A DNA stretch of 64,000 nt, from the NCBI GenBank assembly GCA_019056785.1, contig DXJV01000029.1:32001-96000 (forward strand), written 5' to 3'. This document shows positions 9,902 through 14,246 of the stretch, in pieces. Position 1 is the first letter of the stretch. Each line of letters opens with the position of its first letter. The translations under genes were made by a program, and so were the position numbers. This DNA comes from Candidatus Heimdallarchaeota archaeon (lineage in GTDB: Archaea > Asgardarchaeota > Heimdallarchaeia > JABLTI01). The notes under the pieces were generated by a model. The model did no database searches and was not told where the DNA came from. It saw only the letters and a program-made list of their open reading frames with translations.

Positions 9902-10414
9902 TTATTGAGATTTTTTAATTTGCTTTAAAATTTCTACAAGAGAAGTTCTTGTGCCGTCACCACGGAGTGCCGATGTGCCGATAACTTTGCCTTTAAAACC
10001 AAGCATTTGTTTTATCTTCTCAGGTGGAAGTGCGCCTGGTTTGTCTTGTTTATTCGCACAAATAATTAGTGGCACCCGGCCACAAACAGCTTTAATGCGT
10101 TTTGTAAGGGCTTCAACTTGCGAAAATGTGGAAGGGTCGGTGCTATCAATCACCATAATAATCCCCGAAGCCCCCCTTGCAACGCATTGTTGAACATCTT
10201 TGAAATGATCTTGTCCGGGCGTGCCAAAAATGTGAACATGAAAGTTTTCGATCATATCATGGGTGAAGTCCAAGCCAACAGTTGTACCATTCACAGCAAC
10301 ATTTATGGGTTTTGTACCAAATTTTTGGACGAATTCAGATTTACCTGCATTATAAGGGCCTGTTACAACAATTTTAATGTCTTGTTCTGGACTATGGGGT
10401 TCCATATTTTCCAC
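9902..10414 (-). CDS. Small GTPase, MglA-like
   Basis: G1 GPYNAGKS, TTVGLDF, G3 GTPGQ (no Asp, as in the MglA group), G4 NKQD, G5 TSA. Confidence 0.9.
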   Translation of the reverse strand: MENMEPHSPEQDIKIVVTGPYNAGKSEFVQKFGTKPINVAVNGTTVGLDFTHDMIENFHVHIFGTPGQDHFKDVQQCVARGASGIIMVIDSTDPSTFSQVEALTKRIKAVCGRVPLIICANKQDKPGALPPEKIKQMLGFKGKVIGTSALRGDGTRTSLVEILKQIKKSQ

Positions 10415-10722
10415 CGACTAATACTACTTTCTTTAGCATTAAAAGATTAAATATTATCGAAATAATATGTAAGGCTAGGCTTGGGGCAGCATGAAAAATA
10501 GTAGAAACAGCTCACCTAGTAGGGAAGCCAAAAAAGGGGGGTTAGAAAAAATTAACATTTACAAGGGGATTTTAAAAAAAATCATTGTAAAATTTCAGCA
10601 ATTTTCAAGAAAAAATTTTTATCAACGATTTTGTCAAAACTATAATCTTTAAAAATAATGATTTTCTAGATATATTACAAATTCATAAGAATTGAAAAAG
10701 GAAATTAATGATGTGATTAAAA

Positions 10723-11220
10723 ATGAAACCTGTTAGTTTGTGTCTTGTACAGATGGGCACAAAGGGATTGGAATTGGTTAAAGTTTATCCTAATGTTCTT
10801 CCTGAAGAAATTCTTAATCAAATTGTTGTTAAAAGCATGCCATTTAATGCAAAAAACGGTGATTTTGCTTCAAGCACTATTGGAGATGCAGTCTTTTCAG
10901 GGTATATTTTTTCTGTACCATCTGAAAATGAACGAGACAATATTGCCTCACTTGTTGCGGTTTATAACAATATGAATTATGATTCGAATGCATTACGGAA
11001 AGTTTTTGCATTTACTATTGCAGAACTCAAGAAGAATAATGTGGCTGATATTGAAACATTAACAAAGATATTACCAAACCTTTACAATGGATTGGTAAAC
11101 GGTCGCTTAAAGATCAAAATAAGCTCTGTAATAACCCTCGAATTTGACATGCAATATAAAGATGAGAAAGATGTAGATTTGGAATCATTGAATGGTTTTG
11201 GGAAAGATCTTTGGAAATAA
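10723..11220 (+). CDS. Hypothetical protein, uDENN/longin-like
   Basis: The pattern GLELVKVYP...IVVKSMP...GDF...FSGYIF...R.NIASLVAV resembles the uDENN (longin-fold) module. Confidence 0.6.
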   Translation: MKPVSLCLVQMGTKGLELVKVYPNVLPEEILNQIVVKSMPFNAKNGDFASSTIGDAVFSGYIFSVPSENERDNIASLVAVYNNMNYDSNALRKVFAFTIAELKKNNVADIETLTKILPNLYNGLVNGRLKIKISSVITLEFDMQYKDEKDVDLESLNGFGKDLWK

Positions 11221-11250
11221 TAACATCAAGAGAAAGAAGGTAAAAAAAAG

Positions 11251-11781
11251 ATGTCTTTTTTAAAGCGATTGTTTCGACAACGTACCAAGCGAGTAACGAT
11301 AACCATTTGTGGTCTAGATAATGCCGGAAAGACAACCATTGTTCGATACCTAGTTGCTGGAGAATATAAATCCACAGTACCAACAATGGGAGTCAACAGA
11401 GAAGTCATTGATTTACCTAATTTACAAATGGATATTTTTGACTTAGGCGGACAGCTCGATTTTCGTGGCATTTGGCCTGAAATCAACGAAAAATCAGATG
11501 GACTCGTTTATGTTGTAGATGCATCTGATTATATTCGTCTTGACGAAAGCAAAGAAATTTTCTACAACATTATTAACGCACAAATCAATCCTTTAATTCC
11601 TGTGCTTATTCTGTTAAATAAGTGCGATTTAGAGGAGCGTCTCAGCCGCATTGAATTCATTAATGCTTTTGACTTACCTTCTTTGGGGAATATTAAATGG
11701 GCTTGCTTTGTGACTTCAGCGATCACCGGAGAAGGAATTTATGATGCCTTTCGCTGGTTTATTGACGCTTTTCAGGAGTAA
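11251..11781 (+). CDS. Arf-family small GTPase
   Basis: N-terminal amphipathic helix MSFLKRLF, G1 GLDNAGKTT, G2 PTMG, G3 DLGGQ followed by RxxW, G4 NKCD, G5 TSA. Confidence 0.95.
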   Translation: MSFLKRLFRQRTKRVTITICGLDNAGKTTIVRYLVAGEYKSTVPTMGVNREVIDLPNLQMDIFDLGGQLDFRGIWPEINEKSDGLVYVVDASDYIRLDESKEIFYNIINAQINPLIPVLILLNKCDLEERLSRIEFINAFDLPSLGNIKWACFVTSAITGEGIYDAFRWFIDAFQE

Positions 11782-11789
11782 GATGAATT

Positions 11790-12734
11790 ATGGCTTTGGT
11801 ACTTTCAAGTTATTCGTATTATTATTTAATTGCAGGAATCATTAACTTCACTGTTCTTTCTTTTCTTCTTGTTTTGTTGATAATTCACTTTTTCCGCAAA
11901 AGAACTGTAGGAACATTTCTACTAATAATGACTTACGCAAGTGTATGGATAAATGAGATTTTAATGACATTGGCATTTTACCTCGAGGCACTTTACCCAG
12001 GAAATGAAAATTACCTAAAAGCAGCCCAAACAATGCAAATGACAGGCGTCTTCTTTTTGGTTTATACCATAAACTGGATGTATTTCTTTGCGAACAGGCA
12101 TTTAATTCGTGACAACGACTTGTTTAAATTGTTATATACCTCAATTTTTAGCGCTTTTGTTGGCGTTGCTGGAGGATTAGCTTATTATGACATCTACACA
12201 GGAGATAGAAACAATCCATTCTGGTATTCAATAATTGAACTAGCAGGTGCAGACTTTAATCTTAATTATCCTCCAACACAAGGGCTACGGTTGATTCTTA
12301 TAGGGGGAATGTTTGCCATTGGTTCAATCACCTATCTACGATTAATTGTACGAACCACAAGACTCACCCGCAAAGCTAAAGATCTCGTTACTAAAAAGGG
12401 CCTACGAATTGTCAGTTTATCTATTCTCTTTTTATGGTTAACAGGCTTAGTTCTAGCATTATATATTTTTGGAGCAAATCGAATTCCCTGGCTTTCTGTA
12501 TTGGTTTATCTCTTTCGTGGAATGATCGTCATTACAGCAGTAATTCTTGGGTATCTAGGCTGGATTATGCCCGAATGGCTAAGAAGACGACTTCGAGGGA
12601 AAGCGTGGATTGCAAAAGTTTACACAGGTAAATTGCCTGAACCACCAAAGAGCAAAGAAAATATTGAAAAGGCACCTAAACCAATAACTTCACCCACAAG
12701 CGCAAATCAAATTGTAGAAATTTCCGAACAGTGA
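11790..12734 (+). CDS. 7-TM integral membrane protein
   Basis: Seven hydrophobic segments counted by eye; basic loops after TM1 and TM5 and a basic C-tail; 8 nt downstream of the Arf gene. Confidence 0.8.
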   Translation: MALVLSSYSYYYLIAGIINFTVLSFLLVLLIIHFFRKRTVGTFLLIMTYASVWINEILMTLAFYLEALYPGNENYLKAAQTMQMTGVFFLVYTINWMYFFANRHLIRDNDLFKLLYTSIFSAFVGVAGGLAYYDIYTGDRNNPFWYSIIELAGADFNLNYPPTQGLRLILIGGMFAIGSITYLRLIVRTTRLTRKAKDLVTKKGLRIVSLSILFLWLTGLVLALYIFGANRIPWLSVLVYLFRGMIVITAVILGYLGWIMPEWLRRRLRGKAWIAKVYTGKLPEPPKSKENIEKAPKPITSPTSANQIVEISEQ

Positions 12735-12745
12735 AATTTCGACAA

Positions 12746-12763
12746 TTATTTTTTTTTATTTTT
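12746..12763 (+). terminator. T-rich archaeal-type terminator candidate for the uDENN-Arf-7TM operon
   Basis: An oligo-T tract lies just after the 7-TM stop codon, between convergent genes. Confidence 0.45.
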
Positions 12764-14246
12764 AGAAAAGCAATTGGCGGTAGGTCAATTCTGCAATAAG
12801 AGCTGCCGCAGATATGGTATCTCCTAAACCAACAGTTTGAATTGGGTCTTGAACGATAATAGTAGGAACTGCTAGAATCGTATACTCATTCAAATCAAAG
12901 TCCTTATAAGAAACATAAGTTTCTATTTTTTTCAACAGATTGTTAACCTTCTTGAATGCTTTTGGAAGAGTGGCATCAATATCTATCGTATCAATTATTT
13001 CTTTAAATTTGAATACTCCTTTTGCTTTTCCAGTAATAGCTTTATGGGCAGCTATTAATGAAGCAAAACACAGCGTTTTAAATAAAAGAACTTCTGGAAT
13101 AGGATAGTCTTTTGAAACAAATAGAAGATAACAACCAAAAAGATGTAAATGTAGCCGCTCAAGTTTGAGCTTCTCGCAAACCTTAAGAGCCCCTTTAATT
13201 ATCAATTCATAATTAGTAAACATATCAGCTTTGATTTCATTTGCCAATCTTTTCTGCTTTATTGCCTCAAGGAGTTCAACAAGCTCTCGTTCATTACATC
13301 CTAAACTATTCCAGTAAGTATCTTTTGAAGAATAATAATAAAGCCGGTCTAATAAGAGTCTATTTTTCGTACTGGCAAGCTCAAGATGAACCAGTAAATT
13401 AGGATTAGCTTTTTTCGCTCGTGTAATTAACTCAAGTGTTTTTATTATCTTCTGATTGACTCCTTCTTTTCCAAGCTTCTTTACATTAAGCATATGAAAG
13501 CCTGAAAGAATTAAAAGGTCAGATTTTTCAGCTAAAACCTCTATATCCCTTTGAAATGCCTCAAGTATTTCTAATTCTGCATTTGGTGGATCGAAGGTTG
13601 CAATAAAGCGATTATCGCGTGGGCATTTCCAATATAGTTTTTCACCCAATTTTAACGTATCACCCTTGTGTACTTCAGAAATGATGTGGAAATACAAGCT
13701 TTCATCAAAATCCTTCACCTTTCGAGGGTGTAAAAAGACAAGCTCCCCTTCTTTATTATAAAGGGGAATTTGGATGTTTTTTTTCTTGCTAAAAAGCTCT
13801 CGCATTAGCTTTGGCAAGGTGGTGGTATGAACAAAAATCTGTCGAACACCCAATTCAGCATAGAGATTAGCAATAATTCCTGCCTGCCCACCTAATTGTA
13901 TTTTTTTTGGTGGCGGGAGGTTTTGGAGGAGGTACTGATAGGTTTCTTCTGACTCGATTAACCATTCACTTGCTTTTCCTTTCTCGAAACAGCCACACAG
14001 CCCTGTGATAAAGTCAACAGGAGAATGAATTTTTCCCTTCCATTTTAGGATATTTGTATATAATCTAACCGGGTCGACACCAATTTTCTTGATTAAATTA
14101 AGAATCTGTTCGGAATGAAAATCGATGATCGCATCAATATTAGTATTGAATCCAACAATGGCTCCCCGCACTTTTTTAATGTTTTTTAGGATGTTTGAGA
14201 AGGAGTCATGATAGATTTCTGCCCAAGACACTCGAATATTCCTCAC
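12762..14246 (-). CDS. pfkC: ADP-dependent glucokinase/phosphofructokinase
   Basis: GFNTNIDAI, LGGQAGIIAN, NRFI, HLELAS, SLGCNERE and the C-terminal TVGLGDTISA. Confidence 0.92.
   Translation of the reverse strand: MRNIRVSWAEIYHDSFSNILKNIKKVRGAIVGFNTNIDAIIDFHSEQILNLIKKIGVDPVRLYTNILKWKGKIHSPVDFITGLCGCFEKGKASEWLIESEETYQYLLQNLPPPKKIQLGGQAGIIANLYAELGVRQIFVHTTTLPKLMRELFSKKKNIQIPLYNKEGELVFLHPRKVKDFDESLYFHIISEVHKGDTLKLGEKLYWKCPRDNRFIATFDPPNAELEILEAFQRDIEVLAEKSDLLILSGFHMLNVKKLGKEGVNQKIIKTLELITRAKKANPNLLVHLELASTKNRLLLDRLYYYSSKDTYWNSLGCNERELVELLEAIKQKRLANEIKADMFTNYELIIKGALKVCEKLKLERLHLHLFGCYLLFVSKDYPIPEVLLFKTLCFASLIAAHKAITGKAKGVFKFKEIIDTIDIDATLPKAFKKVNNLLKKIETYVSYKDFDLNEYTILAVPTIIVQDPIQTVGLGDTISAAALIAELTYRQLLF

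Follow-up and report, generated by a model that had tools for sequence, protein, structure and literature searches.

A longin, Arf-family GTPase and seven-helix membrane protein cassette conserved within one class of Asgard archaea: a candidate membrane-attached small-GTPase switch module

A signature made of a Gly-Pro (GP) motif, located just before or at strand beta2, and an arginine finger is shared by the longin proteins FLCN, SMCR8 and NPRL2 and by a class of Heimdall longins, and the 2025 study which described it asked, and left open, which GTPase the GTPase-activating protein (GAP)-like Asgard longins act on (PMC12290439). Among the described proteins, NPRL2 uses Arg78 on RagA/B, SMCR8 uses Arg147 on ARF1, an arginine finger which has been solved in structure (PMC8213707), and FLCN-FNIP acts on RagC/D (PMC12290439, PMC8213707). 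Such longin GAP complexes are bound by lysosomal membrane sensors, LYCHOS (GPR155) with GATOR1 and SLC38A9 with Rag/FLCN (PMC11525196; bioRxiv 10.1101/2024.11.21.624772). In actinobacteria, the multi-copy conservons (CvnA-D) combine a sensor kinase, a roadblock/MglB GAP, a GEF (guanine nucleotide exchange factor) and a Ras-like GTPase, and have been likened to G-protein-coupled receptor (GPCR) systems (PMC13343842, PMC13621833). For Asgard archaea, NPRL2-like longins are reported to be abundant (Liu et al., bioRxiv 10.1101/2020.10.19.343400), and crystal structures and evidence of membrane binding exist for Arf-related (ArfR) GTPases such as GerdArfR1 (entries 8oun and 8oum), in which an amphipathic helix at the N-terminus is folded back when GDP is bound (bioRxiv 10.1101/2024.02.28.582541). 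The ArfR papers make no mention of operons, neighbours, synteny, regulators or GEFs (bioRxiv 10.1101/2024.02.28.582541; PMC11914678). Nor are the partners of Asgard GTPases generally guessable from gene order, the GTPase genes of MK-D1 generally lying outside operons with longin or roadblock genes (Tran et al.). Here we describe an exception, a three-gene cassette encoding a longin, an Arf-family GTPase and a seven-transmembrane (7TM) protein, in a 64,000-nucleotide stretch of a Candidatus Heimdallarchaeota archaeon genome (the window, from contig DXJV01000029.1, named C11 here, of a 2.87-Mb, 82%-complete assembly). No description of such a cassette was found in the papers searched, in agreement with its supposed uncharacterised status, and a 2026 preprint which lists Asgard 7TM and GPCR-like structural clusters has no such cassette among them.

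The open reading frame (ORF) listing of the window gave three intact co-oriented genes, separated by gaps of 30 nt (11221-11250) and 8 nt (11782-11789), as follows.

10723..11220, + strand: gene A, 165 aa, stand-alone longin-domain protein, NPRL2-like (from ORF and model)
11251..11781, + strand: gene B, 176 aa, Arf-family (ArfR-type) small GTPase (from ORF and Pfam)
11790..12734, + strand: gene C, 314 aa, seven-helix membrane protein (from ORF and model)

The original prediction, made from the letters of the DNA, had read these genes as a receptor-GEF-G-protein operon ending in an oligo-T tract, and the co-orientation, both gaps and the oligo-T end were all found again in the ORF coordinates and the sequence. 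It had also proposed that the three genes form one operon-like unit and that their synteny should be traced across Asgard genomes. The results showed that the order of the three genes recurs far beyond chance, in copies within the same genome as well as at loci in other genomes, so that the unit is a conserved one. By tblastn of genes A, B and C against the whole assembly, the genome holds five A-B-C cassettes on five contigs, all with the same order and orientation. Homologues of gene A were found in 15 of 41 genomes of the class, and the 41 gene A loci examined divide into 22 with A-B-C, nine with A-C without gene B, and 10 with distant A relatives alone. Strict homologues of gene C (E <1e-50) are confined to two families of the class, and a search starting from gene C added six further loci, with A-B-C in all five that could be tested and the sixth cut by a contig end. 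This brings the sample to 27 complete cassettes (28 with the one at the contig end) from two families of one class. The intergenic gaps range from 0 to about 115 nt, most being below 35 nt, or the genes overlap.

Pairwise-distance matrices of A, B and C were compared over 21 cassettes. The correlation coefficients were 0.71 to 0.87, a range inflated by genome relatedness, and none of 2000 permutations reached them; the highest value was that between B and C (r 0.87). These correlated distances indicate that the block duplicates and diverges as a unit. No fourth recurrent gene was found around the cassettes, the flanks differ between paralogous copies, and the flanking genes which do recur (nitroreductase, TPR protein, HtrA protease) reflect local orthologous synteny. 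In one subgroup of the Arf-less A-C pairs (L037-L040), a gene for a TPR-repeat protein lies directly upstream on the same strand. Two of the five cassettes in the genome are decaying: in the copy on contig C60 (C60:42299-42829, - strand), gene B is interrupted by two in-frame stops, carries Val for Gly in its P-loop and lacks the catalytic Gln, and the copy on contig C49 (C49:47582-48083, - strand) has a frameshifted gene A with R71C. The decayed copies suggest birth-and-death turnover of the cassettes, or errors in a metagenome-assembled genome.

We tentatively propose, with a confidence a little short of an even chance, that the products of the three genes make up a single small-GTPase switch module attached to the membrane, for which the best reading is that gene A is a GAP on gene B and is docked on gene C. 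In such a module, gene C would be a 7TM protein of the cell membrane serving as platform or sensor, with its conserved surface toward the cytoplasm, and gene A would probably dock on it through a flexible C-terminal tail of the form acidic-x-hydrophobic-Trp. Gene B should alternately bind and leave the membrane by means of its N-terminal helix, as seen for GerdArfR1, and gene A would probably act on it through Arg71, an arginine finger placed beside the Gly-rich beta1-beta2 loop, and thereby switch the GTPase off. The cellular output of the switch could be membrane remodelling or signalling.

Gene B matches the Pfam family Arf with an E value of 6e-42 (143.5 bits, where the cut-off is 22.3), with Ras far behind at 6e-10. 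Its motifs, G1 GLDNAGKT, T45 in switch I, DLGGQ with the catalytic Gln68, NKCD and TSA, form the complete Arf set that had been noticed at the outset, and over 19 cassette copies GLDxAGKT, T45, DxxGQ, NKxD and SA(K/I)TG are invariant or nearly so. The closest solved relative of gene B is GerdArfR1 (8oun_A, E 1.2e-35, among the 8oun/8oum entries), and the N-terminus MSFLKRLFRQ, a basic-hydrophobic helix, aligns with the GerdArfR1 helix LSFLQRLFRQK; its hydrophobic moment is not above that of shuffled sequences, and there is no Gly2 for myristoylation. Because the G motifs with the catalytic Gln68 are invariant and GerdArfR1 is the closest relative, gene B is, judged by its sequence, an intact ArfR-type switch which should depend on a GAP, the ArfR label being taken from the nearest solved relative and not from a tree. 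About 45 ORFs of the same genome match the profile of the cassette GTPase, five of which sit in the A-B-C cassettes; many are 300-340 aa long, a size suggestive of fusion between a GTPase and a further domain.

For gene A, the AlphaFold model (predicted local distance difference test score, pLDDT, 86; 37-sequence alignment) has the longin topology beta-beta-alpha-beta-beta-beta-alpha-alpha, with strands at residues 5-11, 16-22, 48-53, 56-65 and 73-81 and helices at 28-37, 88-104 and 110-126, after which come a small hairpin, an acidic linker modelled with low confidence and the short C-terminal tail D-L-W-K. Longin structures fill its structural match lists, which places the protein in the longin superfamily. 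The Foldseek matches with E <1e-3 were nearly all chains of GATOR1/SEAC (NPRL2, NPRL3, Npr2 and Npr3), and next in the list stood a longin from a Lokiarchaeon. In the exhaustive VIA-align search the best match was NPRL2 (8fw5_B, Z 15.0, 152 residues aligned), then Npr2 at Z 13.7 (8adl_S) and the Loki longin at Z 12.8 (8yqg), with DENND10, FLCN, adaptor (AP) sigma/mu subunits, SNARE longins and roadblock proteins ranked lower, and the language-model neighbours include an Asgard cluster with Pfam NPR2 on 19% of its members. Of the label uDENN/longin-like that had first been given to this gene, the longin part thus stands by the model and the fold searches, and the uDENN part does not, as NPRL2 and Npr2 rank above DENN.

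At the level of sequence profiles, no Pfam family was found for gene A, alone or over 37 relatives, NPR2 (PF06218) and Folliculin (PF11704) included, and the comparison of its profile with PDB gave chance-level matches only. PF06218 has no match anywhere in the genome, and the sole match of PF11704 is a different gene on contig C31. That gene (L053, C31:78845-80191, + strand) encodes 448 aa with a Pfam Folliculin match above cut-off, a DDRLGP motif and an SSRGGRK loop, and is a folliculin-type longin-DENN-like protein separate from gene A. Gene A itself is a single domain of 165 aa, with no C-terminal DENN or NPRL2 part. Its profile retrieved 110 proteins from 1.84 billion representatives, about three quarters of them 140-200 aa long and the rest mostly shorter fragments, with a few up to 262 aa; a 1034-aa repetitive protein among the matches was judged spurious.

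The invariant residues of gene A cluster in the beta1-beta2 turn (G12, G15, L16 and E17) and in the beta4-beta5 loop (P66, R71 and N73). R71 is retained in 30 of 31 cassette copies (21 of 22 A-B-C and nine of nine A-C), the exception being the frameshifted copy, and when gene A is aligned with its distant GP-motif relatives (L047-L052), G15, P40 and R71 are the only invariant residues, a pattern in agreement with the published signature of GP motif and arginine finger (PMC12290439). R71 is a candidate equivalent of NPRL2 Arg78. Gene A is more likely a GAP-type longin (NPRL2/FLCN/SMCR8) than the GEF it was first taken for, because NPRL2 and Npr2 are its closest matches, because an Arg is invariant in the beta4-beta5 loop, and because G15 and R71 are common to GP-motif Asgard longins. 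If gene A were instead a GEF in the manner of Mon1-Ccz1, TRAPP or DENN, it would open the ArfR nucleotide pocket and gene C would merely anchor it. This alternative, which survives better than the others and is nevertheless unlikely, draws on the observations that most characterised longin-type regulators are GEFs (PMC12290439), that the longins of DENND10, DENND1 and Mon1-Ccz1 match gene A at Z 7-11, and that the Pro of the GP motif is absent from gene A. The GAP subunits NPRL2 and Npr2, however, match best and score clearly higher than the DENN and Mon1 longins, and the combination of the invariant loop Arg with the beta1-beta2 loop Gly is a GAP signature.

A wider link between longins and 7TM proteins was observed beyond the cassettes. 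Of 301 genomes sampled over the phylum, 69 encode distant C-like proteins, which are 245-290 aa long, and nine of 16 distant C-like loci have a gene of about 150 aa directly upstream on the same strand (the A' family), with weak Fuz_longin_1, Sybindin or Robl_LC7 matches and a C-terminus of the form [DE][SA][LF]W. The genome of the window holds such an A'-C' pair on contig C18 (about C18:41330-43305, + strand). Members of this longin/roadblock-like family are about 135-165 aa long and, in many Asgard lineages, directly precede either one distant C-like 7TM gene or two, with no Arf gene (loci L054-L069). In two distant lineages, at L059 (G163:C37) and L060 (G054:C165), the direct upstream neighbour of the C-like 7TM gene is instead a gene for a Ras-family GTPase (Pfam Ras about 1e-31), with no longin between.

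The same link is reflected in the C-terminal tail. A D/E-x-W(-x) end is present in 33 of 41 ORFs of the gene A family, and Trp falls within the last three residues in about 5% of other ORFs. GP-type relatives of gene A which end in DDALW lie upstream of multi-transmembrane and C-like genes, and A relatives without the Trp tail have no C-like neighbour. At L047 (G012:C9) and L048 (G012:C38), the longin ends in DDALW or NDALWR and is followed on the same strand by a gene for a multi-transmembrane protein of about 212 aa and a C-like 7TM gene. The hhalign comparison of gene A with the A' family was not significant apart from the tail, and the best local pieces, against the folliculin-like longin and the A' family, were the Arg loop and the Trp tail. 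Since A-C pairs occur without an Arf gene, the most conserved link is that between longin and 7TM protein, and not that between Arf and 7TM protein. The evidence points to the longin-7TM pair as the conserved core, and we infer the Trp tail to be a candidate docking peptide.

Several results weigh against the proposal that gene A is a GAP for gene B docked on gene C. The gene A family has the invariant G15 followed by L16, thus Gly-Leu at the entry of beta2 where the distant relatives L047-L052 carry Gly-Pro. No eukaryotic or eukaryote-length NPRL2 was found by the gene A profile among the 1.84 billion representatives, and hhalign of gene A against the folliculin-like Asgard longin of the same genome was not significant. 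The known longin GAPs are heterodimers of larger longin-DENN proteins, and gene A is a lone domain of 165 aa. R71 is equally kept in the A-C loci without an adjacent Arf gene, which implies that its role need not be tied to gene B, and the correlation between Trp tail and C-like neighbour comes from related genomes and few independent lineages. The complex prediction of A, B with GTP, and C, in which C was the scored partner, gave 0.58 in comparison to 0.54 for an unrelated control, and speaks neither for nor against binding.

It may also be asked whether the longin and the 7TM protein are a real pair whose job lies outside GTPase regulation, for example with the longin gating or trafficking the membrane protein, and the ArfR gene a later add-on in one sub-lineage. 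The nine A-C loci without gene B, the A'-C' pairs over the phylum without an adjacent GTPase and the conservation of R71 where gene B is absent all fit this explanation, which we nonetheless regard as quite unlikely: in 27 cassettes the Arf gene sits exactly in the space between A and C and diverges in step with the two, and the G15/R71 signature points to a GTPase substrate, possibly encoded elsewhere in the Arf-less loci, the small-GTPase-like ORFs of the genome of the window numbering about 45 as given above.

Returning to the membrane component of the proposed switch module, the AlphaFold model of gene C (pLDDT 89) has seven long helices (residues 7-37, 40-68, 73-106, 110-137, 165-195, 199-226 and 233-259), a beta-hairpin in the loop between transmembrane helices 4 and 5, and a helix 8 (262-279). 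The predicted cytoplasmic loops carry 21 Lys and Arg residues in comparison to two on the outer loops, which places the N-terminus outside and the C-terminus inside, so that the protein has the topology of the GPCR type (seven transmembrane helices, N-out/C-in, helix 8), and the seven transmembrane segments that had been predicted were found in model and charge distribution alike. Conservation is 0.53-0.73 in the cytoplasmic loops and the juxtamembrane helix, 0.32-0.41 in the outer loops and poor in the tail, and the conserved cytoplasmic motifs are KKRTxGT, NRHxLxDxD, RKxxDxxxKKG and GWxMPxWxRRRxRGKxW.

No Pfam family was found in any of 37 gene C members, and for the GPCR families (7tm_1/2/3) the same members gave only one chance-level row (E 0.56). 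Neither DRY nor NPxxY occurs in the family alignment, where the motifs are NRHxLxDxD and GWxMPxW. Foldseek returned GPCRs only, and weakly, with GABA-B as the best (E 2.8e-3, TM 0.44-0.52), and VIA-align returned GPCRs and microbial rhodopsins tied at Z 15.6-13.4, a range common for helical bundles. The matches in the structure atlas were bacterial 7TM histidine-kinase modules and Asgard hypothetical proteins, and the closest language-model neighbours were prokaryotic HisKA_7TM-like proteins, including Asgard clusters named for the histidine-kinase 7TM region; one neighbour cluster carries PF16927 on 10% of its members, and gene C itself has no PF16927 match. A retinal rhodopsin identity was rejected, as helix 7 (233-259) has no Lys, and a single weak Yip1 match in one member was disregarded. 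As modelled, gene C is a receptor-shaped 7TM protein of no described family, and its GPCR likeness is generic: topology and helix 8 bear it out, GPCR family and DRY/NPxxY do not, and the fold matches are shared with microbial rhodopsins.

That gene C might be a true receptor for a ligand or a membrane state, setting the nucleotide state of the Arf protein directly or through the Trp-docked longin, is a rather doubtful possibility. If true, it would provide a receptor-coupled small-GTPase switch in the archaeal lineage closest to eukaryotes, and evolutionary continuity with the eukaryotic GPCR-like proteins which control longin GAP complexes or G proteins. We consider very unlikely the more specific form in which gene C, like a GPCR toward G-alpha, would itself stimulate the ArfR to exchange its nucleotide, with gene A as the off-switch and the operon as a full GEF-GTPase-GAP cycle. 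The GPCR-like topology of gene C with its helix 8 and the beta-hairpin in the loop of helices 4 and 5, the top Foldseek rows being all GPCRs, a sub-threshold Pfam G-alpha match of gene B (E 1.9e-12; 47.4 bits, where the cut-off is 48.8), the B-C distances co-varying most strongly, and the two distant C-like genes directly after Ras-like GTPase genes would all agree with direct exchange. The GPCR matches are, however, weak and tied with microbial rhodopsins, the gene C family shows neither a GPCR Pfam family nor DRY or NPxxY, its closest feature neighbours are HisKA_7TM-like proteins of prokaryotes, and longins are by far the more frequent partners of gene C, in comparison to GTPases. Nothing in these data shows a GPCR-like mechanism for the cassette. 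Of the original receptor-GEF-G-protein interpretation, what is kept is the module of longin, Arf and 7TM protein, and what is weakened by fold and motif evidence is the longin as a GEF and the 7TM protein as specifically a GPCR. Lastly, it is hardly credible that the genes share no function and lie together by accident or merely through inheritance of a local order, for although many loci come from one genus and part of the gene-order conservation is thus simple orthology, the five paralogous copies stand on different contigs with unrelated flanks, the same order is found in the second family of the class, and the gaps are small or the genes overlapping.

The surroundings of the cassette in the window are as follows, where the promoter, TATA-like and oligo-T entries were read from the sequence.

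9902-10414, - strand: gene for a second small GTPase, 170 aa, divergent from the cassette over a 308-nt spacer
10415..10722, + strand: candidate promoter region, AT-rich, 308 nt, intergenic, between gene A and the divergent GTPase gene
10670-10677, + strand: TATA-like ATATATTA, about 46 nt before the ATG of gene A, candidate promoter
12749..12763, + strand: oligo-T tract T9-A-T5 after the stop of gene C, candidate archaeal terminator
12762-14246, - strand: gene for an ADP-dependent sugar kinase (ADP-PFK/GK), convergent neighbour of gene C

Within the cassette, a Shine-Dalgarno-like GAAGGT is located in the 30-nt spacer ahead of gene B, and AGGAG lies 11 nt 5' of the start of gene C. The T9-A-T5 tract sits in the short spacer common to gene C and the convergent ADP-PFK/GK gene. 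The divergent GTPase has Ras/Arf/Roc matches at about 1e-15 and GTPGQ as its G3 motif. In the nearest relative (L013) the orthologous cassette has no such gene next to it, for which reason its position next to the cassette looks local, and a two-GTPase cascade was set aside. The public sequencing runs holding the stretch are of DNA from sediment and vent metagenomes, with no RNA run among them.

What the cassette supplies is a set of matched triplets, each of a regulator, a switch and a membrane protein, in many diverged copies, and thus testable native partners for Asgard Arf proteins. Should the longin turn out to act as a GAP on Arf while anchored to the 7TM protein, the membrane logic of the eukaryotic longin GAPs would predate eukaryotes.

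Similar to SR-alpha SRX with SR-beta at the ER membrane, the cassette brings together a longin-type domain and a membrane-bound Arf-family GTPase, and SRX-SR-beta was among the weaker structural matches of gene A (1nrj; 6frk_y, Z 6.7). The differences are that this match is far weaker than NPRL2 and that SR-beta has its own transmembrane anchor; SRX, moreover, is an effector-type binder not known to have an Arg finger. In comparison to the conservons, and also to MglA-MglB, the cassette shares the arrangement of prokaryotic multi-copy operons in which a small GTPase is encoded together with a regulator of the roadblock/longin superfamily and a sensor-type protein of the membrane. The conservons have four genes, including a kinase and a DUF742 GEF, whereas the cassette has three; its 7TM protein is stand-alone without a kinase domain, a DUF742-type GEF gene is lacking, the longin is not MglB, the GTPase is of the Arf family and the host is an Asgard archaeon, so that the cassette is an analogue of the conservons and not a member.

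Within the Asgard archaea, the described ArfR/AArf proteins provide the closest likeness to gene B, which is most similar to the crystallised GerdArfR1 (bioRxiv 10.1101/2024.02.28.582541; PMC11914678). The operon of LAMTOR1-like, Rab-like and DENN genes is likewise a conserved Asgard neighbourhood of GTPase and regulator (bioRxiv 10.1101/2020.10.19.343400), which differs in its parts, those of the cassette being an NPRL2-like longin, an ArfR and a 7TM protein. The likeness to GATOR1, FLCN-FNIP and C9orf72-SMCR8 lies in the NPRL2-like longin of gene A with its Gly before beta2 and its beta4-beta5 Arg, and in an encoded neighbour which is an Arf protein with the catalytic Gln. Gene A differs from these complexes as a lone protein of 165 aa with Gly-Leu, no evident heterodimer partner, a Trp tail and a tie to a 7TM gene. 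This tie may be compared, as an analogy only, with that of LYCHOS to GATOR1: although no sequence relationship or specific structural one of gene C to LYCHOS was found, no test being aimed at it, the cassette GTPase is of the Arf type and not Rag, and the eukaryotic partners are large multi-subunit complexes, both systems would join a multi-pass membrane protein (with a GPCR-like 7TM part in LYCHOS) to an NPRL2-type longin regulator of a small GTPase.

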